The position numbers were made by a program, and so were the translations under genes. Positions 24,930 to 52,311 of a stretch of DNA of 64,000 nucleotides are shown here, one piece after another. The first letter of the stretch is position 1. Each line of letters begins with the position of its first letter. Under the pieces are notes generated by a model, which was not told the origin of the DNA, made no database searches, and was given only the letters and a program-made list of their open reading frames with translations. The DNA comes from Euglena gracilis. Taxonomy: Eukaryota. The stretch covers positions 24,502,954 to 24,566,953 of the forward strand of contig CP154954.1 of the NCBI GenBank assembly GCA_039621445.1, written 5' to 3'.

Positions 24930-25400
24930 ACAAAAGCGCATCCCGGCTTTTACACACACACCCTGGTTTTTTTAGCCAATATGGCCGTTCTGTACACTTT
25001 TTCCGATTTACCGTTTTGGGCCAAAAAAAAGTCGAAAAAATCGAAAAAAAATCGATTTTTTTTTGCCCAGAAGCATGTTTTTAAGGCCTCCCGGACCCCG
25101 AAAAAGTGTTTCCGAGCTGAAAACGAGCGTTTTTGTTGTTTTTTTTTGACCCCCAGCTCCCCGTTTTTGGCCCGAAACCAATTGACTTAGGGTGATTTTC
25201 GGGGAAAAAAAAGTCGAAAAAATCAAAAAAAACGAAACGATGTTTTTTTTGGCCTCCTGGGCCCGGAAAAAAAATGTTTTTTGGGCCGAAAATGAGTGTT
25301 TTTCGACCTGCCAGCCCCCCCCCCTCCCCGTTTTGAGCCGCCAACCCATTGACTTTGGGTCATATCTGGGTAATACCTACTCCCGAAATTCCAAAAAAAA
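24930..25400. repeat. Dispersed AT/poly-A-rich repeat; relatives at ~46040-46520 and ~58790-59310
   Basis: Shared GGCCTCCCGGACC..GAAAA and GCCGAAAATGAGTGTTTTTCGACC blocks. Boundaries approximate. Confidence 0.65.
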
Positions 25401-26633
25401 AAGTATTACCTGGCAATTTTTCATAATTTTTTTGGAAGAATCCTTTTGCGGGTTAGTTTCCTGATCTTAGGCAGCCAATTAGGACAGTGTTTTTTTTGCC
25501 ATTAGTGGCATGAATTTACGCTATGTTGTGCAGGTGTCTTTTTCAGGCATTTTAATTTTGTAACTGTTAAGTTTTACAGGGAGTTTGCTTTCCTAATGCT
25601 TCTGTGAATTGTTCTCTGTAGTGGAGCCCTCAGATTTGTCCATTGTTTCTCGCATGATATTGATGTTTGCTTGTTGGAAGGTGTGCGTTCTGTGAAGTAG
25701 TTCCGGATGTTGTTCTGATTTATGTCGCTTGTATGCTGAAATTGTGGTGTTTTGGCATACATTCTGTTGTTTTTGATTGGATTGTTGTCCAGGTGTAATT
25801 TCTTGTGGTTTTTTTGTTCCTGATGCGACATTGCCATTGCCCTCTTTTTTTTTCAAGGACCGTGTGCATTGCTTGTGGTTCGCTCGCATGTTGTTTGTGA
25901 ATGTCATTATATTTGATGGTGTTTCTCACAGTTGATGAATTTCTCTTTGTTTTAGTGGGGAAAATGTTCTTTTTTGATGTGTTGTTTCGCATTTCACCTG
26001 CTTCGGTATGTGTTTCTGAAAGGGTGTTGTTCCACTGGTGGCATAATTGAGCACTTTTTGAAGCATAAATTACTTTTTTATGCCACTGGGGGCATAAAAA
26101 AGGAAAAGGGATGTTCAAATGTGCTTTTTTTTTTGAGACTCCTCTTCTGTATGCTTGGTAGATGCTGTTTTTACAGTTACACACCTGAAAATGCTTATTT
26201 TTTGGCCAACAGCTGATTGTTTTTGCCACCAGTGTCAAAAGACGCTCTGAATGTCTGGTGACGTGTCTAACGGAAGGTGATCTGAAATGAAGTGTATATT
26301 TGTATATGTTTGCATTCGTTTGAATGAAGCCAGTGACGTGCGGTTTCCTGGTTTCCTTGCCAGAACGCATTCATCTTCATTTTCTACCTTGCAGGTGTGG
26401 TTCAAGGCCAGAAGTCCTTTGAAGACCCTTCCTCTTCTTCTTCAGCGTGGCCCAAGTTTCAAGCTCCAGTCTTCCATCCTGATCATCATCCTCACCTCCA
26501 GCTGAACAGTGTTTTGCAACACCTGGCTACCACACTCTCTGGTCTGAATATGTTTTTGCAGTGCATATGGTTGGCCCCTTCTGTTGCCCCTTTTTGGCTG
26601 CGTTGATAGTCTGTTTTCCCTTTTTCATCGTAG

Positions 26634-28620
26634 ACAGAAACCATAATGGCGAAATTTGTGTGAAATCCCGCACAGGTGTCTGCATTGACTTGCAACACGC
26701 TTTTGCAATTGCCAAGGATGCTTTCACGTGTGCTGTGGGTGGGCAGCACCAAGCCCCTCATTATGCGGTGCATAACTTCTTTCGTGGTGCATTTTACCTG
26801 TATTTGAGCCTACGGCGCCTCGTAATACCACGGGCCCCATTCATTGAGAATAGCGTCTCCCGTCTACCCCTCAGCCGGGCTGATCGACGTGTATTGGCTC
26901 CCACCGGGTTGGTGCCCTACGCCGCATACACTGTTGCACAGCAGGCAACTAATTCCCTCCTAGACGTTTGGGCTGAGATCAAGGGTAAAACCGTCGGAGT
27001 TTGGGTGGACAATTTCTATAAGCGACGCTTTGGGGTGAATCCTGGGAACACAGACACGTCTCTGAATAGTACCGCAGTTGCCGTCCTGCTTAACACTCCC
27101 ACGTTGGGAACGTGACAAGGTTATCCTTCTGTGATCACTCTGCTCCAGAGGGTCAACGTTGCCAGTTCTTCTTTCACCGTCTCTGACAAGGAGCTTATGT
27201 CGTTTGTACAGGGTGCTTTCATGGGTTTCACGGCAGAAGCAATTCGCGTTCCTCTAGATGTTCCGAGGGGCAAGATCCGTGGCCCCAAATGCTGTGATTT
27301 GTCGCTAGAACCCCATGGAACAGCTAGCCACGTGGATTTGCTCAAAACCCTCAAGGTGGTCTTCCAGGTTCAGCAGCACACTGAACATGTGATAACGTTG
27401 CTGTCGGATGAGAACATACACTCCCGTGTGATACGATGGATGTACAGCCGAACGTACCGTCATCTAGCCATTCGCGAGCATCTGCAAAGCTGTGTTTTGT
27501 TGTATGGGGTGTGGCATGCTTACAAGAATGTTTGCCTCCATCTGCACCGCGTGTTCTTTCACATTTGGATTTACCTGGACAAGGGCTTGGTGGTACCCAC
27601 AGACGCTGTTCCATTGCCTCGTGTGAACGGTGTTCAAAAACTCGGCCATATCGAACGTCTTGTTGCGACAATCTTGCTCCTGCCAATGTTTGACCAAGAG
27701 ATTGACCGCGTACGTGCTTTGTTTTATCGCGTGACACGGTCATCCACTGTCGGCCAAACAGGTTCTATGTCCTCAGACCAGTCTGTTGCACGAAAGGAGT
27801 TGTTGTATGCCTCGAGTTTGGCAGAGAATAAAGGCAAACGAGTTCGGTTGCTCCTGTACCAATTGTTGCAATTTTGGCTACTGATGACTGATTTCTGTCC
27901 AGCATTGTTTGTTATTGGATACAAGGTTCGTACATGCACATGGGACGGGCGTAAGCTGGGGTCGGGTGCTTGTGCTCGCCAAGCTCTTCAGTGGTCATTT
28001 TCTATGCTGATCCGGTTACATCCGACAGATTATTTAAGGGTCCGTCACGTGAAGACAATCACACAAGCACTCTTCTCTTATTCTGGAGGTCGTGGCACGA
28101 TGTGGCTCCAGGAGTGGTCCACTGTGAAGAGCCATGTGAGGCACACCTCAGCAAAGTTACACGAACAATGAGACGATTTGGTGCACATTTGGGCCAAGAA
28201 GACTACTCGAATATGTTCTTGCTCACACCACCTAGTAGGAAGATGAGGGAGCACTGTGCCAGCGTTCCGGAACGTGTCCGTTGTGTCGTTTGTGAACATG
28301 TCCTGGATTTCGTGAAATCATCATTTATCCTGCCTACTGTGCGATGGACATCAAATGGCTCGATTTCCATCCCGGACATCATGTCATACACCACAGAACA
28401 GCCCCTTGTTCCTTTGCTGAGGCCCGTAGCGGAGGAAAGCATCACGGCGTTGCTACGCAGTAACTTGCGAACCCTGGTGCAAGAGCATAAGGCAACATCT
28501 GCGTTTGTAAGCATGTTGTAATCAATGTTCCAAAGAAGGTTATTGGAACGAATACATGAGGAGGAGGAAGTGTTGCAGCGGTTGGAATTTGAGCTGCAGA
28601 ATACAGGTCCAAGGCTTTCA
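26634..28620 (+). pseudogene. DDE-type transposase pseudogene, Academ/DUF6589-like motif order
   Basis: ORFs 26561-27115 and 27131-28171 are in one frame split by TGA; frameshift near 28075 into ORF 27970-28521 and stop-separated 28525+. Motifs VWVDNFY, LLSDENIH, LYGVWHAYK and EEPCE fit DN / D / GxxH / E. Confidence 0.7.
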
Positions 28621-29158
28621 TGTAGCGACATCGAGCAGTTTCTCAGCCGCAGTGCTTGTCGGATGTGGTACAGCTGGCACGTATCGTGCCCGGACCTTCC
28701 ATTCCGTTCATGCAGAACGACGCAATCCTAGCCTGGTGTGGTCATCATATTGGTGTCCAACCAATGGTGAACAAAGGCTGCATGATCTTTGTGAGAGGGT
28801 TCTTCTTCACAATGGGATTAGGGCAATTTGTACAGTCAGGCTCATGCTATGTGGATCACCTTGTTTTCATCCAGTTCCGTCAATTTATGACTCTAGTGGA
28901 ATAAGTTGAACTTAGGACGCCATGTCCCATGCTGCTTTTTGGCGCACCACATCTTGAAACGTGTTGATTACTCCAGTTTCAATTTATGACATTAGTGGCA
29001 CAAGTTGACAGGATTTTGGATGGGGAATGTCATTGTCTGAAATGTCATACGAAAGGGAATGGATGGTCAGGCACTCTGTGCAAATCTGCTAGGTTGTTAG
29101 TTTTCATTGTAGATGCGCCATCATGACCATGCCAGTTCCTGCTGAAGTTACACACCTC

Positions 29159-31252
29159 ATGGCCATGGTCCCCAAGTTGCCCGCCGTCAAAGTGTCAACA
29201 AGGAAGTGGAAGCTCCCATTGATGGAACAGGACATGCTGAAGAGAATCCCAAAGGGGGACTAACTCCGCAAGGCCCGTCTGTGGACTGCAGAAGAATACA
29301 AGACTGCCCGAGATGTTCTCGGACGACCTCCCCTCCAGCTGGAAGTGCAGGATGATGGATGCATGACGAAGGTGGCAATAGCTGCCACAGACTCTGGCAT
29401 CAACATCTTCCCTCGAACACCAGCACTGCCCAAGACAATCTCCACACTGCCATTTCGAGCTGTCCTAATTGACCTGCGGTCGGTTGAAGCAGACGACGTG
29501 GTGTAGTGCATGGACAATGTGCCAAGGACTGTCTGTCCTTCCAGTCATTCTGTTCGGCAGGCCAGACATTGTGGATATGGCAACCCTGCGCCGCATCCAC
29601 GTGCTTGGGGAAAGCTGGAGTGGAGAGCGACGGACGTTCATCGTCTGGACTGCGGACAAGGATGCCATGCACACAGCAGCCCGCCGGCAGATCGTTATAT
29701 TCACGCCAGATGTAGGAGAGCTCCGTCGACGACAGCCTCACTATTTCAATATCGCACATGCCGAGCCACCAACCCTTGGATGGGTTGCCATCTTCGGATA
29801 CCTGCAGGCCCTGCTGCTGCCAGATAACAATGATGAGAGCACCTCCCAGAGCGCGGACTGGCTGTACGTCATCAGCGACGACGTGGCACTGGCGGTGTTG
29901 CTCAGCACCAGACTGGACAACACACCATCTGTAGCCCTCTGTCCGTTGCGCAGTGAGGAGTCCATCCCGGATATCGCAGGACATATGAGCGAGGCTCTCA
30001 AGGGGACCCAGAACATCCCGGTGTTACAGTGGACAAAGATCATGGAGCGGACCATCGCCCTGACACCGATCTTTGAGATGGTGCAGCAAGCAGATGTGGC
30101 AGAGAACCTCGACAGTGTGAGCAGTGACAGCGAGATCAACATGCCCTTCATGCTCTTGCCTCCCAACCCGAAGCCGCCTGCGAAACGCCGTGCGAAACCT
30201 GGTGCAGAGGGAACACCACTAAAGCCGTTCAAAGTACCACAGGCCAGACAGTGCAAAGAGAAAGAGAAAGAGGCGCCAAAAGACAAGGACCCAAGGAAGG
30301 ACAAGGATCAGGGGAAGAGGATGCAGACCACAGCGGAGCCCTGGCCAAGCGAGGAGCCGAAGCCATCGGCACCATCGTCAGGCACGCCAGCCGCAGCCCT
30401 CACTGCTTCTGAGTTAACACGGCGCTTGTCTGGCAGTGTCTTAAGGAAGCCCATCCACTAGCACGCCCCCGAGAGAAACGCAGCCATTCTGCACAAGTGA
30501 TGTTCCCGTGACATGCGCGCTGAACGTGAGTGGTGAGTGTTGTCCCCCCTCCATGAAACCCCTCCATTAATTTGGAAAAGAATGGCTGCGTGGGCCGAAA
30601 TGTGACAGCATGTTTGTGTGTGCCTGTGTGTGTGCGCGCCGCTGTCCCAATGGAGGGAAAGGGAAGGACCCAAGGGACACCCAAAGGGACTGCTGAAGAC
30701 GACCGTCAGGAATTTCTCTGTGCCACATGCTTCGCAGACAGATTGAAAGTTGGTATTCCAATGCAACCTTTCGTGTGCATGGATTTGACACAAATTTCTA
30801 TTTTGAATACTGCGCCACCCCCCCCCTTTTCGCACACTGCCAAATGGAGGCTAAAGGTGAATGTGGGACAATCCACTGAGCCTCAATACCATTTAGGCAA
30901 TTTGCAAGACCCACCCCATCAGTCAGGTTTTGTCCGCATTCAACAGTGAGTCCAGTACAGGACAATATATTGCCTGTGTAATCTGATCATCTGGGATGAT
31001 GGGACTGGGGAATTTTTTGGATGGTTCAGAATGTCCATGCACGGATGAATAATGGGAGAACACATTTTGGAGAGCAATCCGGAGCCTCGTGCTAAAACAC
31101 CAGTGTATGCACTCTTCATTACCGCGTGCCCTCCCCACTTTTTCATTCTTCTTTTCCATCACAGCTTCCAATCCCCCTCTGCATGTTCGCTGGGACGCAT
31201 TGCAACAAGTGCAGATGATCAAGGTATGCTCTGGTCCATGGAAACAGAGTGA
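29159..31252 (+). pseudogene. Transposon accessory ORF2 (disrupted): possible PIN/NYN-like domain, K/E/P-rich linker, Cys-finger-like region
   Basis: 330-aa ORF 29469-30461 with GC3-rich coding look, extendable upstream through stops/frameshift (RAVLIDLRSV) and downstream (EWLRGPKCDSMFVCAC, EFLCATC). Confidence 0.55.
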
Positions 31253-32143
31253 GCAGTGTCCTATGACCAGTAATTTCCCTTCCTGGGTTTATTTTTGGAG
31301 GCCTGGTGCAAGATGCATATTGGCGTGTAAAATCCCTTTCACAGAGAAAATGATGCCTACACAGAAGAGTATAACAAGAACGTACACACGAAATATGTCA
31401 CGCACATCGCCAAGAGGTCGCTTGTGAGTCAAAAACTTTATGCCACTAGTGGCATAAATTTTTGTACTAGTTGGCCGCCTAAGCTGATCTGTCTGGCTTC
31501 GAGGCATGGCACAAACCTGGGATCGCACTGAACACTAACCCCCCTGCCATATCTTACCATTCCCCTTCCTTGGGCCGTGGGTTTGTTGTGATTGGGGTCA
31601 GCGGGAGGTTTTAGGGATCCGCTGGGCGGGGAGTTGTGGGGAAATAAAAATACCGGTGGATGGGGCATTCCAAGGGCTTCAAATTAGGTCTCCGGACATT
31701 TCCTTTGATTTTGCATCATTTTCGAGATATGTTGAAATTTTTTGATTTTTTTTGCCCGAACTGGCAGAGTCCAAAGGGGGGGGGCAATCCTACCCAGTTT
31801 GGACCCCTTCGCGCGTGAATAACTCAGGCCTGGCGGGGAGTTCGGGGTCAACCCAGGGTGATTCAGAAACTAGGAATCCAGTCGCTCGCCACTGAAAAAA
31901 AAATCCGGGAACGGGGCCGGGATCAGGCGGGGCCGGGATCGTAAGGAAACCCTGATCTGGGTCAGGCTTGTGCTTAGTCGGGTGCCTACCCCACGGGGGG
32001 GGGGGGGGGCTAGGGGCAGGCACCGCATAGCACCCCTGCCGACCCCCCCGGGGGGATAGGGTTTCGGGGTGGGTTGGGCAGGCACCCATGTCTGCCGACC
32101 GATCACATTTTCTTTACCTTTTTGGCAAGGAGTGCTAGGTTTT

Positions 32144-39862: not shown

Positions 39863-40235
39863 TCACATTTTTTGAGGGTCGATGTTGCGTCCCCCTCCTC
39901 CTGTTGAGATTTGGATAATAGAGTATGGGTGGAACAGCCGAACGTCAAAAAAATTTCCATCAAACATTCTGCATTCCTGATGATGCACCCACACGCCGAA
40001 GCATGGGGGAAAAAGTGCTGAAAGAATTGGAAGAATTGGAAGAATTGGAAGAACTGACCCTGGAGCCGAAGGCGCCGGGGGCCCGGAAAAGGCCGTGAAT
40101 GAAAATTTCAATTCAAATAATTGAGTTAAAATTTTCTTGATCCCCCCTGGACCCCCCCCCCGGGGGGTGTGTCTGCTAGGGGCAGGCACCCTAAGGCACC
40201 CCCTTCCCCCCCGCAGACATTCATTTAGTGTGGTA

Positions 40236-40826
40236 CCGGGGGGGGGGGGGACTTGTACGGGAAAAAATGTTGTGGGAGAAATTCTGGACGAAAATTTGTC
40301 CAGGATTTTTCCCGCCTTTTTAAGGATCCGTCCAGGATTTTTCCCGGCAGATTTAAGGAAAGTTCAATTTCCTCCAGTGAATGACCCCCCAAAAAATCTT
40401 CGGCGCTGCGCGCCGATTTGCAGCAGGAATATTTCTTCCTCTCAGGAATCGGTGTTTTTCCCAACCGCCCCAAACCCCTTTGAAGCGTGCGTTAACCCAC
40501 AGCGCGAGGTCCGCCCCAAAGAGAGCCTGTGCATAAGTTGTGTGCCAGAAGCCGCTTTGTGTCTGTTAACACGGCGGTCTTATCACCCCAGCGGAATGAA
40601 CGCGTTCTGTTTGGTTTCACCAGTTTGCAGCCATGCTTTCTCATTCAATTGTTGGTCGGCACAAAACCTGGGCGGTTTTTTTTTCAGCTGTCTAATATTT
40701 TTTCCCACCTGGTTTAAGCGAGCGTTCAGGATTTTTCCCGGCATTTTAAGGATTCGTCCAATATTTTTCCCAGCAGAATTTTTCCCGTCGGCAATTGTTC
40801 CCGGTCAGATTTCCCCCCCCCCCCGG
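40236..40826. mobile_element. TA-target MITE nested in 40214-42389
   Basis: TA|CCGGGGGGGGG ... CCCCCCCCCCGG|TA; internal duplicated CAGGATTTTTCCCG block. Confidence 0.75.
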
Positions 40827-41223
40827 TACGCCAAGGTAGTCTTTTTGTGGTTCACCGTGGACAACAAGATTTTTGGTGGTTCACATATGGACACCAAAAA
40901 TTTTTTATGGTTCACATGTGTACGCCAAAAAAATATTATGGTTCACATGTGTGCCGCGGCAAAAACTCAATTGTGCGCCTCGTGCACCGCGGGAAAAAAT
41001 TTGCGCTGCGGAGCGGTGCACTAAGTGAAAGTCTGAAGTCAATGTTGCGGCTCTATGAATGTTTTCCAAAAAAGAAGGATTTGACAGTTGGGAAACGCTT
41101 CCATTCATCACGGTGGATGACATAGCACAAATGGCGATTCCCCAAGGAGTTCGGCGTTTGATAGAGGAGGCCAAAAAATTGATTGGTCCCACATCCTCCA
41201 CCGTTGTGAACCGTGTCTGGGAG

Positions 41224-41583
41224 CAGGCTTTTGCTTAAGGGCTTGCAGTACCCCCCCCGGGGGGGCTGGACTGCAGCTAGTCCAAATTTGGCCAGTGGGA
41301 TTTCTAGCAGACCCCCCCGGGGGGGTCTGCTAGCAGGGCTAGCTAGTGGAATTTTTTTTCCAGTGACCTCATTTCCACTCCGGTGCGCAGCGCCGGAGGA
41401 AAAAAATTTTTCCAGTGGGGGGGACCCCCCGGGGGGGGAAGGGGGGTCCTAGCTAGTCCATTTTTTCCAGTGTCTAGCCGATTGGCGAGCCAGTACCCCC
41501 CGGGGAGGGTACTGGCTCCTTAAGCAGCCAGTGCCTTTAAGCAAAAGGGTACTTTTGCTTAAGTACCCTTAAGCAAAAGCCTG
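41224..41583. mobile_element. hAT-like MITE, CTAGCTAG family; relatives at ~43990-44340 (inverted), 48804-~49330 and ~59560-59800
   Basis: Perfect TIR CAGGCTTTTGCTTAAGGG / CCCTTAAGCAAAAGCCTG; exact 8-bp TSD TCTGGGAG at 41216-41223 and 41584-41591. Confidence 0.92.
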
Positions 41584-44500
41584 TCTGGGAGCCCCAGGTT
41601 GAACCAGCCTGAACCGGCGTCTGGGACGCCAGTTCGGGCAGGAAATTTCGGCGTCCAGGTGAAACATTTGAATTTCGAAGAAAACAGGGTCGGAACGTGC
41701 GATCGCCGATTTTCAGAGCGCTGTGCATTGTGGCTGAGTTCTGAGGGTACCAAGCGAAAGGTCTCGATGAGAGCTTTCAATTGATATGCTGTATGGTTCC
41801 TGAGCTGGTGGATTTGACAAATTAATATGTCAAATTTTGGAATACACAATCGCTGAAAATAAGAGTTCTGTGCATTACGGTTTTATTCTGTGGACATTTG
41901 TCAAAAGCCCTTGACAAGAGCTTTCGATGGATGGGCAACCCCAATGTCCCAAACATGGGAATTTGGGGTGATTACTCAGACGCCGGTTCGGACGTGAAGC
42001 CAGATCCCCCTAGAAACGATTTCAAAAACTGTGTCCCAGGCACTGGCTTCATGCCCGAACCGGCGTCTGGGACACAGTTCTCAATATGGTAGTGGTGGAT
42101 GTTTCTAACCCATGTGAACCTCTCAATTGACCCTGGGATATGGGTGCCGCACATGCACTAGGGCTCTGCATGTACGGTACAAGGGAGTGGCGACCCTTCT
42201 CCAACCACAGCGGTGGGGTGTGATTGAGCCAGGGCCAAAGTTCACAATGTGACACGTGGCTGAGGTGCCGACAGATGAATCAATAAATTTTGTGGACACC
42301 AATTGTTTTTTTTTTGTGGTTCATTTGTGGACACCAAAAAAAATTGTGGTTCACACGTCTTTTTTTGACCCACACTAAATGAATGTCTGCCCCTCCCCCC
42401 GGTCGGTGAGCACAAGCATGGTTGCAGTGGGGAAGTAGTGAAGCCCCCCCCCCGTCCCCAGCACGGCCCACCCCCTTCTACTGCGGTGCACGTCCCACAG
42501 AAGTGGGCTGAACCACGCCCGCTGCCCCACGTCAGCCATCCAATAGCTGGAATATTGTTGGTATTCAGGACACACAGGTGGAGAAATGACTGACTGTTCC
42601 CTCCTATGCAGTCACTGACTGCTTTTTTTTTAATGCCTAGGGGTCCCTCCCCGAGCTTGAGTTTCCAAAGAAAGTAGGGCTCTTCCTTGACTTGGGTTGC
42701 CGCCTTTCCCACGCGGCATTGTGTTCCCCCCGGCGCAAGGTGCACGTGATTGGCGGATCACCCCCCGGTCATGCAAGCCGGCCCACCCGCCACCGGCAGC
42801 AAGTGGATGCCCCGCCCCCCCTGCCCTTGACGACCTCGCGTTGCCGCGGGTGCAGTGCTTGCTCTGAGGAGGCCTTGGACTGCTGCTGGCGGCTCAATGG
42901 CCCGGGCTGTTGTCCCCCCCCCCTGTTTGAGGGGAACCCCCACCCCCTTGCCACCTCCAGGCCAAGCACCTCCAGCAACAAATCCCGACGATTTCACCAA
43001 GGTTTTTGCAGCGTGGAAGAGATTGGGTTGTGATCCGGTCAACCACGACAAATGACGAATCAGAATTAATCTAAACTGGTAAACTGAGCGTAAATATGCA
43101 TCAAAAGTGGGATGCAGAGTGTTTTTTTTTTGAGAATGTGGAACGATTTGTAATCGCTCCTCCAAAACCTTTTGGATGTGCAGCTTATATCAGTCTGTCT
43201 CCGTGGTTCTTCCCCTAGGAGTGTTGTTTCTTTCCCTTCACTGGCATTTCTTTGTGGTTCTTTGAATGGCCCATCCTGTTTCTGTAAGAATATTACCCCA
43301 CCCTCAAATTGGCCACCAAAATCCTACATTGTTCACCGTCAGGGCTGTTTGCCCCTCTGACATGTTGACGTTTCCCCCAAAGTTAGCCCTCAACCGTGGC
43401 CCAAGCAAAGCCTGGGGACGGTTGGCTGATTTCAAGCCCTGGCACTCAACCACACATTCATTAAGCTTGGCAAGGTCCTCCCTCCTGGGTTTATTGAAGA
43501 CTTTTGTGTCGCTGGCACAAGGGACAATCTGGCCGGACTGTTTAATCTGTTTTATGGTTGCTAATGTTGTGGGTCGGTCGGATGGGTGGATCATCCTTCT
43601 GTTTAACTCAGCAGACCCCCCCTGGGGGGAGGGTGTGGGTGTCTGGGGCTGGACCCTCCCCACACCGCATTTGCTGGGAGGCAAACCTGAGCAGTGGCAT
43701 ACGTTTTGTGCTGTTCTGGCACAATGGGATTTTGTGGCATCAAGCGTAGCTGTAAAAGTTAATACTACCCACCCAAAACCTACCCCCTTTGTTGTACTGA
43801 GGCTTCAGGCCTGCTTATGGCCTGGCTTTGCCGCTGGTGGTGAGTGACCAGGTACCCCTACCAAAACCCCGCCCCCCGGGGGGGGATCGAAAATGCCCTA
43901 CCACCCTGCCCATAGCACCCTCCCGGGGGGGGGGGGGGGCGGGGACCCGAAAATGGCCATTTCAAAGCCTGGGTCGATAGGCACCTCCCCCCCGTGGGGG
44001 GGGGGGGGGGTCCAGGGGTCCCCCCCCACTGGAAAAAAAATTTCCTCCAGCGCTGCGCGCCGAGGTGGAAATGAGGTTTTTAATAGGTTTTTGGCTGATT
44101 TTGTTCCAAAAATTCTCAAAATGGCCAAAAACGGGCATTTTTGGCCATTTTGGGGGGTCCCAAATAAAATTTCCGGCGCTTCGCGCCAGCTACCGGAAAA
44201 AAAATTTCCACTAGCTAGCCCTGCTAGCAGACCCCCCCGGGGGGGTCTGTTAGAAATCCCAATAGCCAAAATTTGGATTAGGCAGTCCAGCCCCCCGGGG
44301 GGGGGGGGGGGGGTACTGCAATCCCTAAAGCAGAAGCCTGGCCCCCACCCTGCCAGGGAAGCAGGCCGGGTTGTTTCCACGGGGTTCGGCTTCGGCTCTC
44401 TACCGTCACCGTTGCCCGCCACAGGGTTGACGTCCTGCAGAGTGCTTGCTGCCGGCCCCCGAATCGCTTCCTGCCCCAGTTCCTTCTCTGTCCTTACCTT

Positions 44501-45803: not shown

Positions 45804-47235
45804 GTTCCCCCTCCGGGGGAATTGGTCCAGTTCGGCCTGATTCCAACCACCGTGATGGCCTCTCATCAGTTGTGGTGTACAGTGGTTGGGCAGATCCTTG
45901 GTAGGGAAAGGGTGCATACTGCAGCAGGTGTTTGGGGCCTCTGTCAGACCAAATATGTCCCTGGGGAGCTTATATGGCCCCCAGTCGCCGTTCTGGCCGC
46001 CGACCTATGTTCGAACTCAGTTTTGTGGTCCAAGACAGCATTTGGGGGGGGGGGGGCAAAAAAAAAGGTTGTTCCGGCGCGCTTTTGCGGCCCAAAACGC
46101 CATTTTGAGGTTGTTTTTTTCGATTTTTTTCAAAATACCTCGACAATGAAGCAAAATCAAAGAAATGTCCGAAGAGCAAAAATAAAGCCCTTGGAATGCC
46201 CTGTCCAACCATGGTTTTCTTTTCCCCCAACTCTTTGTGTAGCCCGAGTTACGGACAATTTTCGGCCAATTTTGGCCATATTGTGCAGTTTTGGCCTGTT
46301 TTGACTTGGCCTTTTTTAGGTCAAAAAATTCGAAAAAAAATACCCAAAACCATGTTTATTGGCCTCCCGGACCCAGAAAAGCCGTTTCAAGCCGAAAATG
46401 AGTGTTTTTCGACCCCCCCCCCCCCAGCCCCCCATTTTCGGCATGAAACCCATGCATTTTGGTTCACTTCCGGGTCAGAAAATTTCAAAAAATCGATTTT
46501 TTTTATACCAAAAGTCTCACCCTGGCAGAGTCGAAACTGGGACGGGGTGGTGAATCCCACAGTTTGGACCCCTTATCGGCTGAATAACTCAGGCCGGCCC
46601 GGGGGTCAGGGTCAAACGGAGTTGTTTCGGAAAGCCAAGACCCAGTCACACGTGACTGGAACAAAAAAATCCAGAATGGGGCCGGGGTCATGGTGATAAT
46701 CCATGGTTTGCATCACCCACCCCCCTTTCCCTTGGTGGTGAGCCCCACGCTTGCTCTGAAGAGATAAGAGCTCAGCGACCCCTCCCCCCATTTACACCCC
46801 CCCTGCACCTGACCAAACCAGCCAGACCTTATAAATCCCAGGGTGTTTATAAGTGGAGAGTGGGTAGTTTTTCGATAATTTCTTTCCAATACTGGAAATC
46901 TTCCTCGAAACACCACCAGAAAGTTCAGTTCAAAGCTATTTTCCCAGAGTGCAATATCCTTCCCTCCCAAATGCAGGATTCACAATGCTCATTGGGGATA
47001 AATGTTCTTGTTTACACCGTTCGTTCTGTTTCTCAGACACGTTGGAGTTTTTCCTTCATTCATTTCAACTTGTTGGACGTCATGGCTGTGAGCCATCCGG
47101 ATCGATTTTTTTCTGGTTCATCATTTTATGTTGGATTGAATCGCATCTGTATCGATGCTGTTGCCTGGACGTCGCCCAACCACTGCGTTTCTGGCCGCCC
47201 CATACCGCCCCCGCAGAAACCCCGGCCCACCTAAC

Positions 47236-49208: not shown

Positions 49209-49767
49209 TATTAAAAACCTCAATTTTTTTCCAGTTGGGGGGACCCCCCGGACCCCCCCCCGGGGTCTAGCTAGTCCACTTTTTCCAGTGTCTAGCCGAT
49301 TGGCTAGCCAGTACCCCCCCCCCCGGGGTCCTTCTAGAGCAGATGCGGTCACTGGAGCGGATGAGGAGATGCAATTCCATGGCTAGATGTGGGACGATGT
49401 GGGGATGCGGGTGCTGATGAAGATGTGCAGATACAGGCACTAGAGCGAAAATAGGGTTAAAATCAGCCAAAAAAGGTCCAAAAGTGACCAAAATTGGTCA
49501 AAAGTTGCCCAAAAGGGCCAAAAGTGGCAATGAGCAACAAAAGCAAAAAGGGCACTATTGAGGACCTCAAAGGCAATGCGGGGCGCTGCAGGGCGATGCG
49601 GGACCCAAAGGGGTGGGTAACCAAAGGTGCTTGCCTCTGGCTCAATAAAACTCTGGCAGCCTCAGAAAATTTTATTTGGTGCAAAGTGCCAAAAATTTTT
49701 GGGAAACGGGGCCAAAAAAAAACACCCAAAAATGGCATTTTCCTCAACCCAAAAGTTTGGCCGAAAG

Positions 49768-51930
49768 CAGGGGCAGGGAGATATTCCGGTCCGGAATAAA
49801 CCGGAATAAACCGGAATAGCGAAAACCGGAATAAACCGGAATAAACCGGAATAACCGGAATAAAAGCGCCAGCCAATGACTTGAAAATTCTGCAAGACAC
49901 AAAGGCAATGAAGGTGAAGTTTGACATATTTTCAGGTTTCAAAATCACAAGAGCAACAAAAGAGCGCAAGCGCAAGCGTAGCACAATCAGCACTTGATAT
50001 TAAGAGCACACCTTTCAGCACTTGATATTAAGAGCACACCTTTAGTTTGCCTGTTTCTCCCCCTGGTTGAATGCATTTTTTTTTGTTTGGATTTTCTCCC
50101 CACTTGTGGGACTGCATTTAGTGAACGTTTGTCCCTGAGTTCTTTCCAAAGGGACATGAACTAGGACAATATGAACACTGATTTTTGGGGGCAGGGATCC
50201 CATTGGACAAAGCGAATCATCCTTCAATCAGGGGATAATAACACTCTTAGGCGGCCTAACTCGTATTTAAGGTTTTGATTTTTGCATTGCTCTTAAGCGC
50301 AACGTTGCATTCTTTTTGAAACCTGGCAGTGAAACCCACCCTTTTGACCCTCTGGTTTCGCGGGGACCCTCCACGGTGACACCACGTGCATCATTTGCGG
50401 TTGTTGGAACCCAGGAAACAGGCCCCTTTGGTGTTTTTAAGCGTGTGCTCCATTTTAGAAAGGTCCAGACCCCCAGGTTTAAACGCCGGGGCACGTGAAT
50501 TTTCCCAACACCCCTGTTGTATCTCCCTCATTTTTGAAGCCTGGACTGTGTTTCCAAGATGGCGCTACATGGGCTAGGTGACTTTTGGGCTGTTTTTTTT
50601 TTTTGCTTGTTAGGCTCTGTGATCTGTGAAGGTTTACCTGCTGAGGTGCTCGTCGGCGCAACAGCCACGCTAATTTAGAATTTTAAGAATTGTATTTCTA
50701 TTGCGCCGTGGAGCAACATAACTCTTAAATTTCCATTCTACATGAGCTTGGTTGTCCAATTTTTGGATGCGTAATGAAACCACATGCTGACGCATGTGTT
50801 ATTATTATCGGTTAAAGCCCCTTTTCCCAAATGCGATTCACAATGCAGAAAAAATATCTGTGCCTCCGAAGTGGTGTGAAACCAGATGGTGTGAGGGCAA
50901 AGCTGTTTTTTTGGTAAGCAATGTTCTTTCCTCAGGTGTGGTTGGCGAGATTGCGCTGAGTGGTGGCTGGTGATTCTGTTGTGTTTAAATTCTACAAAAT
51001 ATCCCGCACTGAAGGATTTCCAAAGAGGTTGTTGTGCGCAGATGCGCAAACCGACCAAAATGTCTGTATTCGCATTTGCGCAAACCAACCATTTGTGCAA
51101 TTTTACAAACACGTCAATTGCAGCTGGCACACATGGCCCTTTTCACAGTTACACAAACGGTTGGTGTGCGCACCGTCCATTTGCCCATTTGCCCGCACCG
51201 ACCACCAAGTTCTCACACAGCCAAGTTTCAGGATATCGCTTCAGGCTTGGGCACGCCTCACCAAATCATTCAGTCGATATCCCAAGTTAATGAGACAGCC
51301 ATTGAAGGCAATCACACCTGCTGGGTGTTGTGTGTATTATATGCTGCGGTGATACCTGCTCTTAGGCACCTTATTTGCCAACGTCCCTGCTTTCATCTCC
51401 ACGTCCTGGGGCACCACATCGCATCCTGTTTACATTTTTTGGGGGTTTTGGGGGTATCTTGTCATTTTCATATAAAAAAATGCAAATGCGCATTTGCGCA
51501 CATCGACAAAGAAAAAAACTCAAGTGCGAGATGTGCCGCCTAAGATCAGCACTCGGCAGGACAATTTTTGAGAAGAAAACAGAAAGCAGTACCAGGGACC
51601 TGCCTCAAGAGAAAACCCTGAGCACCATTTTTTTATCAGCTTATTTTTCCCAAAACGGTGGACGTCTGTTGTGGTGCGGTCTGCACAGCATCTCCAAGTG
51701 CAAAGTGACCACTTGGTGGGGCTGGGCAACCAAGGAATGCATCGCCATTCCTGAAGCCGGGTGAGTGCCTCGGCCCAGTTGTGCTTCGAAAAAATCCTAA
51801 GTCCATTCAGACAGAAATTGACCGGAATAAACCGGAATAAATTCCGGAATAAACCGGAATAACCCGGAATAAACCGGAATAAAACACCGGAATAAAATTT
51901 TTGGCCGACCGGAATATCTCCCTGCCCCTG
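49768..51930. mobile_element. 2.16-kb non-autonomous CAG..CTG element with CCGGAATAAA subterminal arrays and 7-bp TSD
   Basis: TIR CAGGGGCAGGGAGATATTCCGGTC / GACCGGAATATCTCCCTGCCCCTG; CCGAAAG at 49761-49767 and 51931-51937. Confidence 0.85.
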
Positions 51931-52311
51931 CCGAAAGATGCCAATCCAGCTGGATTTGTATTTTTTGGCTTATTTTTGGGACACCTGCCAGGTCCAGCCG
52001 CCGGGCAGCCACACCCCCCCCCCACGGGGTCAGCAGTGTTTTTTTTCCAGCCAGCACGTTTTCCAGCTGGCCCGTGGGACCCCTGGGTCGTAAGAGAAAA
52101 CACCAAGAAGACTACCAATCCCCCCCCCGGGAAACTCTCATGCCCGAGAACCTGTCAGGGTCCCGCCCGGGAAATTGTCAGGGTCCTTGGTACCGGCCAA
52201 CCTGTCAGTATAGGAAGTTGCCAGGGTCCCTGGTATTGGCCAACCTGTCATGTGACAGTTTCCGGGGGGGGGGGTAGGTACCTGCTTGAGGCGTTGCTCT
52301 CACCTGCACAG

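Follow-up and report, generated by a model that had tools for sequence, protein, structure and literature searches.

Within a stretch of 64,000 nucleotides of Euglena gracilis contig CP154954.1 (the whole stretch analysed here, called the window, whose numbering is used throughout), a single element of 6,018 bp bounded by terminal inverted repeats (TIRs) was read directly from the sequence at positions 25466-31483. The interval contains a transposon of the cut-and-paste type that occurs in multiple copies and has two genes on the same strand; the copy is full-length but dead, and we conclude that it represents a real transposon of an undescribed lineage. Most likely this lineage is allied, remotely, to the DUF6589/Academ-type transposases and lies outside AcademX, AcademH, Transib, P and hAT; we give this reading a probability of about one half. 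An initial annotation of this DNA had proposed that the combination of features fits neither Academ nor Transib, and the element fits none of these five as they are defined.

The element is flanked by identical target-site duplications (TSDs) of the sequence CTGAT at 25461-25465 and 31484-31488, both read directly. The left TIR (25466-25517, + strand), delimited by alignment of the two ends and by the limits of contig matches, begins CTTAGGCAGCCAA and includes the first unit of a repeated palindrome; the right TIR (31432-31483, - strand), delimited by the end alignment, ends GGCCGCCTAAG. The terminal hexamers are CTTAGG at 25466-25471 and CCTAAG at 31478-31483. The left end reads CTTAGGCAGCCAATTAGGACA and the right end in reverse complement reads CTTAGGCGGCCAACTAGTACA, with 18 of 21 positions identical. 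When about 50 nt of the inverted ends are aligned, 39 of 52 columns agree and a single gap of 2 nt is needed; the TIRs are thus genuine, though not perfect. The CTTAGG termini, CTGAT duplication and TIRs of about 50 bp listed in the initial annotation are all present with this qualification. Inverted ends matching at 18 or more of 21 positions together with a 5-bp duplication are calculated to arise by chance in 0.004 pairs per window. The 5-bp reading of the duplication is the only one that leaves both ends symmetric, and it agrees with the position at which the matches of paralog contigs stop (25466 in two runs and 25464 in one). Four further end pairs with at least 18 of 21 matching positions were found elsewhere in the 64-kb window by the same scan and represent other TIR elements; the window is therefore rich in transposons.

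Contigs of DNA sequencing runs revealed other copies. A contig of the exact locus (run X6, record 16) crosses the left junction at 25344-25630 with 1 difference and a word depth of 17.6, and deeper contigs of the same run (word depth 229-323) cover the interior of the element with about 3-6% differences. A paralog contig of 878 nt (X6, record 17) follows the element over 25466-25744, beyond which come 600 nt of unrelated flank, and two further paralog contigs stop matching at 25466 and 25464. The joints 26338>28845 and 28168>31216, each observed in two DNA runs, and the joint 26655>29989, observed in a third run, look like internal-deletion derivatives. These contig matches, new flanks and joints show a dispersed multi-copy family whose common sequence stops at the CTTAGG terminus. 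With TIRs and a TSD on the one hand and dispersed copies on the other, the element is a class II TIR (cut-and-paste) DNA transposon. In X6, the paralog contigs are 13-18 times as deep as the junction contig of the exact locus; summed depth does not equal copy number, and a figure of roughly ten to twenty copies is only indicative. No second copy of the element was found within the window. Scans for further loci, limited to the search patterns used, yielded one 3.1-kb contig without TIRs in metagenomes and no further loci in viral and prokaryote genomes.

The first gene, ORF1 (26645-28590, + strand), is a decayed DDE transposase gene located by tblastn of 14 homologs, by the family hidden Markov model on three pieces and by translation. 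The 14 database proteins (326-859 amino acids), retrieved through a word index at 24-45% identity, match the + strand at about 26645-28590 in two frames. When ORF1 is compared with a profile built from 54 family members, three of its stop-to-stop pieces match, with E values of 1e-98, 1e-35 and 5e-28, and these pieces together span profile positions 65-617 of 666. Three lesions interrupt the reading frame: a stop (TGA) at 27113, a shift of frame at about 28066-28085 and another stop (TAA) at 28519. No start codon was found in the window copy, and about 64 N-terminal and about 50 C-terminal profile positions were not detected. The initial annotation had described a broken reading frame of about 660 codons with five ordered motifs and few lesions. 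The frame and all five motifs were recovered; the damage had been understated, because each gene carries at least three disabling lesions, and both ends of ORF1 are undetectable.

The five motifs follow one another along the + strand as LAPTGLVPY, WVDN, SDEN, GVWH and EEPCE. LAPTGLVPY starts at 26894. WVDN (27002-27013) holds the first predicted catalytic Asp (27008-27010), which the family alignment and the structural model place on strand beta1, and SDEN (27404-27415) holds the second (27407-27409), placed by the same evidence just after beta4. The GVWH signature (27506-27517) follows beta5 in alignment and model, at the position of the C/DxxH signature of hAT, P, MuDR and Kolobok as well as Dada, as described in PMC9587614. 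EEPCE (28126-28140), read in the frame after the frameshift, marks the putative catalytic Glu region at the start of the helix that follows the insertion domain. All three acidic residues are kept in the window copy. In addition to the features listed initially, we recorded RVPLD at 27245-27259 (+ strand), a loop motif before beta3 that is invariant in the family alignment, together with the second gene at 29063-30461 and the repeated palindrome.

The size of the family was estimated with a profile of a first alignment (A1) searched against 1.84 billion representative proteins, with clusters defined at 50% identity. The transposase family comprised 1,530 clusters at E≤1e-3, 997 at E≤1e-10 and 377 at E≤1e-30. 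Ten clusters were inspected, nine of the transposase and one containing P0017, the relative of the second gene; two contained a member with a source name, which was 'hypothetical protein', and the sequences all derive from ENA, Logan or JGI assemblies, where they lie on contigs about 1-7 kb long. Conservation was assessed in a second alignment (A2) of 54 sequences, numbered after the intact member P0006. R235, P237, D239, R242, D289, W324, H325, E366, G460 and R464 are invariant, and at least 90% of the sequences have W154, D156, N157, E528, E529 and E532. No relevant Pfam match at E≤10 was obtained for any of the 54 members, whether to hAT, P, MULE, CACTA, KDZ or RAG1 or to DUF6589, and seven pieces from the window gave no match at E≤1. 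Searches with seven proteins (E≤1), with 44 proteins (E≤0.01) and with P0017 and the open reading frame of metagenome contig L001 (E≤10) returned only scattered single weak hits. Profile A1 found nothing meaningful among PDB sequences.

The structure of P0006, an intact member of 699 amino acids, was modelled with AlphaFold2 on the family alignment (pLDDT 91.9, pTM 0.86). The model runs through beta strands at 152-160 and 174-182, a helical hairpin, a strand at 250-256, a helix at 263-280 and a strand at 284-288 in its first half, and then through a helix at 290-301, a strand at 317-321, a helix at 324-337, about 190-200 helical residues and a helix at 529-544. As modelled, P0006 is an RNase H-like core interrupted by a large all-helical insertion. 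D156 lies on beta1, D289 comes directly behind beta4 and W324-H325 directly behind beta5, and E528, E529 and E532 stand at the start of the helix that returns after the insertion. A wide fold search against 48,161 PDB representatives returned DDE transposases or integrases at all ranks from 1 to 29; first among them is the P element (Z 8.9 over 339 aligned residues, root-mean-square deviation 5.9), followed by Tn5 (Z 7.8) and Hermes (Z 7.7). A second comparison gave Z 9.3 for the P element (352 aligned), 9.1 for Hermes (280 aligned), 6.2 for HzTransib and 6.0 for RAG1, and the best Foldseek match was again the P element (E 4e-3, probability 1.00). On the model, the reading of ORF1 as a DDE/RNase H-like transposase with its acidic triad at beta1, after beta4 and on the post-insertion helix is secure, because the list of fold matches is consistent and the conserved acids are placed as expected. 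The DNA transposon with a DDE/RNase H transposase that the initial annotation had proposed is thus borne out by the modelled fold, with the residues of its DN/D/GxxH/E pattern at the expected places; the RNase H fold was found in the P0006 model and in the structure searches made with it. Of the three outcomes that the initial annotation had named as refuting its proposal, none turned up in the tests that could be run.

The lead towards Academ came from a language-model Atlas queried with P0006. Among its 30 hits, 28 were DUF6589 clusters, with a top score of 0.90 and 173 of 256 features shared, a number within the tool's range for true family members; the DUF6589 clusters belonged to Basidiomycota, Mollusca and Mucoromycota. 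Academ elements are described as most abundant in Pucciniomycotina among fungi (PMC5751038) and as bivalve-rich among molluscs (PMC10294476). DUF6589 was taken as the Academ core because of these shared taxa, and it is probably the Academ-type core; an Academ kinship of the family is plausible but unproven. The 'Academ-like' label given initially has indirect support from the Atlas likeness to DUF6589 and from the shared taxa, and none from the Pfam profile. Like Academ, the element is a TIR cut-and-paste transposon of about 6 kb with a large DDE transposase and an extra protein function, and its transposase lies nearest, in language-model features, to DUF6589 clusters of Basidiomycota and Mollusca, taxa rich in Academ according to the same two accounts. 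Unlike Academ as described, it has a 5-bp TSD, CTTAGG termini and a euglenid host, and no detectable nuclease or helicase domain; unlike DUF6589, it gives no match to the sequence profile. The literature collection searched contained no functional assignment of DUF6589, which was mentioned there only as enriched, and nothing joining Euglena, Academ and transposon.

Several observations weigh against this reading. The Pfam model of DUF6589 (PF20231) matches none of the 54 family members at E≤10. The Atlas recognition value is 1694, below the tool's mark of 2300, and a third of shuffled proteins also yield ten concordant top hits. The equation of DUF6589 with the Academ core is itself our reading of the shared taxa. 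Academ, Dada, Kolobok, Novosib, Sola and Zator are reported to have had no Pfam models in 2017 (PMC5751038), and the family could belong to one of these six. Structure scores are middling, with Z of about 9 and a Foldseek E above 1e-3. A direct repeat of 6 bp (CTGATC) or 7 bp (CTGATCT) is another possible reading, since CT opens the left TIR and the right flank reads on as CTGATCT; the TSD length is also drawn from one copy. No empty site was found with a flank-derived probe on the window or as a clean joint in the contigs, where 'skips' of 6.36-6.44 kb join high-copy flank repeats with short sides and are not clean empty-site joints. Essentially no reads fell on either gene in about 5% of one RNA-seq run; three runs presumed to be RNA contain small shares and may be DNA. 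The description of the element as a new Academ-like lineage with 5-bp TSDs is plausible, the TSD coming from one copy and the kinship from the indirect Atlas lead.

The alternative that survives best, which we nevertheless regard as doubtful, is that the family forms a separate new superfamily of eukaryotic DDE transposons with a hAT/P-like architecture and no specific Academ/DUF6589 kinship, so that the language-model likeness would reflect a shared fold class only. It accords with the lack of any relevant Pfam match at E≤10, DUF6589 included, in 54 of 54 members, with the failure of the profile to find anything in PDB sequences, and with the low Atlas recognition value and the concordant hits of shuffled proteins. 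The TSD length, termini and accessory gene are also unlike those of the superfamilies compared, as these are described in PMC10045372, PMC7204232 and PMC9587614. What speaks for a specific kinship instead is the concentration of 28 of the 30 Atlas hits in a single family set, together with a number of shared features, 173, that is typical of true members; the initial annotation also ascribes a DN/D/GxxH/E pattern to Academ.

An assignment of the family to another described superfamily, as a divergent member of Dada, Kolobok, Novosib, Sola or Zator, or of P or hAT, appears unlikely. The best matches among solved structures are the P element and Hermes, and the direct repeat is readable as 6-7 bp, which is the TSD length of Dada. 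Like the P element (6p5a/6pe2) and Hermes (4d1q), the transposase is predicted to have an RNase H core in which many helices, forming a large insertion, separate the second Asp from the Glu, and a His-containing signature after beta5. Unlike them, it shares about 10% sequence identity with either, its element has other termini, and no THAP, BED, hAT-dimerisation or P-element Pfam domain was detected in the 54 members. The element also duplicates 5 bp, unlike P and hAT with their TSDs of about 8 bp. With respect to hAT, there is no PF05699 match, and the signature is GVWH rather than C/DxxH, its first residue being Gly and not Cys or Asp. Atlas points to DUF6589 and not to hAT or P families. 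Against Kolobok, the duplicated sequence is not the TTAA described in PMC9587614; against Dada, Rfam gave no match on the whole window and thus found no small-RNA gene as a Dada-type target.

It is very improbable that the element is an ordinary Academ transposon nested within the diversity of AcademX or AcademH, for which the DUF6589 lead from Atlas and a length of 6.0 kb, near the 5,565-bp mean given for curated bivalve Academ elements (PMC10294476), could be cited. AcademX is described as carrying a nuclease and making 3-4 bp TSDs, and AcademH as carrying a helicase and making 9-10 bp TSDs (PMC10045372). The AcademX nuclease is an XPG domain fused to the transposase, and the AcademH helicase has a gene of its own. 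The present TSD is 5 bp, or up to 7 bp in the asymmetric reading of the one copy, and not 3-4 or 9-10 bp; Pfam detected no XPG nuclease or helicase domain in the ORF1 pieces, in ORF2 and its relative P0017 or in the 54 relatives; no fused longer forms were seen among proteins of 1,505-4,295 amino acids, which is weak evidence; and the Pfam DUF6589 model gave no match. Transib is the single well-known group whose TSDs are 5 bp. A Transib/RAG1-like element, suggested by the 5-bp TSD of that length class (PMC7204232), by a DDE core with an insertion domain and by the appearance of HzTransib and RAG1 among the structural matches, is disfavoured as the least credible alternative, because Transib ends are CAC-type heptamers (reference TIR consensus CACTWMC in PMC7204232) where the present termini are CTTAGGC and because the structural match is weaker (Z 5.3-6.2 against 9.1-9.3 for P and Hermes), with no RAG1 Pfam match or other detected sequence relation and no Atlas hit pointing there.

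Under the reading as a remote ally of DUF6589/Academ-type transposases, a mechanism can be proposed. ORF1 encodes a DDE transposase of about 700 amino acids, with Asp in W-x-DN, Asp in D-E-N and Glu in EE-x-CE. Multimers of this protein may recognise the CTTAGG termini and probably also the palindrome, of which one unit lies at a distance of about 25-27 nt from either end. Palindromic sites are suited to binding by a dimer. The multimers would pair the ends and then excise the element with a two-metal DDE site. Excision may proceed via a hairpin, the route of hAT and Transib, or via staggered cuts, the route of P. Joining to target cuts staggered by 5 bp, followed by repair, would produce the CTGAT duplication. 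ORF2 would contribute an accessory protein of about 476 amino acids.

The palindrome is a 22-bp unit found at seven sites with looser matching (25493, 26026, 26077, 26217, 28884, 28983 and 31437), all of them non-coding. Matches to its 15-nt core number nine, at five sites, all within the element, against 0.24 expected by shuffling. One unit lies 25-27 nt inside each end of the element, the others occupy the 5' non-coding region and the intergenic region, and none falls in coding sequence. Unit 1 (TTTTTGCCATTAGTGGCATGAA, 25493-25514) is 27 nt inside the left end. Units 2 (26026-26047), 3 (26077-26098) and 4 (26217-26237) lie in the 5' non-coding region, and units 5 (28884-28905) and 6 (28983-29004) between ORF1 and ORF2; units 4 and 5 are degenerate and were recovered by looser matching only. 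Unit 7 (TTTATGCCACTAGTGGCATAAA, 31437-31458), 25 nt inside the right end, is a perfect 22-bp palindrome. Paralog contigs carry 32 extra letters at 26270-26272, including another palindrome-like unit (TGCCATTTGTGTCA), and the window copy thus has a small deletion relative to its relatives. Contig L001 from a metagenome holds a distant member of the family, a 657-amino-acid open reading frame at 233-2206 with 24% identity, and has a different palindrome of its own (AGTCCGCGAGCGATCGCGGACT) three times, at 1596-1620, 2250-2274 and 2461-2487, once within the 3' end of the gene and twice downstream of it. Since L001 carries its own palindrome three times, the sequences hint that private palindromes accompany this transposase family.

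The second gene, ORF2 (29063-30461, + strand), is a decayed accessory gene recognised through P0017, an intact relative of 476 amino acids that matches it at 91-92% identity in two frames and was the single close relative found. It contains the stops TAG at 29090, TAA at 29261 and TAG at 29504, and a frameshift with four residues missing at about 29525-29528; its product would end in a basic tail resembling a nuclear localisation signal. Neither ORF2 nor P0017 gave a Pfam match (P0017 at E≤10) or anything meaningful among PDB sequences. A single-sequence AlphaFold model was unusable (pLDDT 36), and the best Atlas match for ORF2, NYN at 0.81, was weak and below the tool's threshold for a lead. 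At residues of about 195-205, P0017 has a GERR motif following a run of beta-alpha-like segments. This motif recalls ParB box II, a likeness supported by no tool.

By analogy with the ParB-like PAG3 of red-algal Plavaka elements, which has been proposed to bind the inverted-repeat arrays of its own element (10.1101/2025.02.11.637652), the ORF2 product may be considered a candidate reader of the element's own palindrome; this is an idea for ORF2 and not a result. Like the Plavaka elements bearing PAG3, the present element has a second gene and a short palindrome of its own in every non-coding stretch. Unlike Plavaka/CACTA, it shows no Transposase_21 match, and its ORF2 has no Pfam or PDB sequence match. 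A further-reaching view, in which the family, with at least 1,500 environmental clusters, would be a new lineage of superfamily rank, sister to Academ/DUF6589, whose accessory protein reads its own palindromes in the manner of PAG3, is put forward tentatively. On that view, the present element would be the first member of a lineage without a database name to be defined by its anatomy, with ends, a 5-bp duplication, two genes and a private palindrome array.

To our knowledge, new superfamilies of eukaryotic cut-and-paste transposons are rare. About 20 superfamilies of these elements are distinguished in PMC9587614. The present family is invisible to domain-based annotation of transposable elements, because it has no Pfam model and, among the members looked up, bears no source name other than 'hypothetical protein'; in the genomes and metatranscriptomes of euglenids, and probably of other protists, it will sit among the unclassified repeats or the hypothetical genes. 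With the ends, target duplication and gene content of the window copy, the family can be defined and an annotation profile built, and this copy serves well as the type specimen of a large transposase family that lacks annotation. If the Academ alliance is true, the family would be a third lineage, differing in TSD length and in accessory protein, which bears on the idea that the accessory enzyme sets the TSD length in Academ (PMC10045372). Taken together, the palindrome array and the accessory gene may serve for the recognition of an element's own DNA.

Further repeats were observed in the window. At 49762-51936 lies a second TIR element, of about 2.17 kb. Its inverted ends (GCAGGGGCAGGGAGATATTCC) are perfect over at least 21 nt, its 5-bp duplication is CGAAA, and it bears subterminal tandem units (CCGGAATAAA). 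Nothing in it matches the ORF1 family, and it may be non-autonomous and likewise make 5-bp duplications. Inverted-end pairs with 18-19 of 21 positions matching and 5-bp flanking repeats were found at 41284-44273, 41403-44041 and 40205-42398 and are possibly nested TIR elements. The flanks of the 6,018-bp element at 25200-25418 and 31551-31750 are extremely high-copy repeats that also collect RNA-seq reads, with a summed contig word depth of about 0.4-2 million against hundreds to a few thousand within the element. Parts of these flank repeats recur in the window at 46128-46475.

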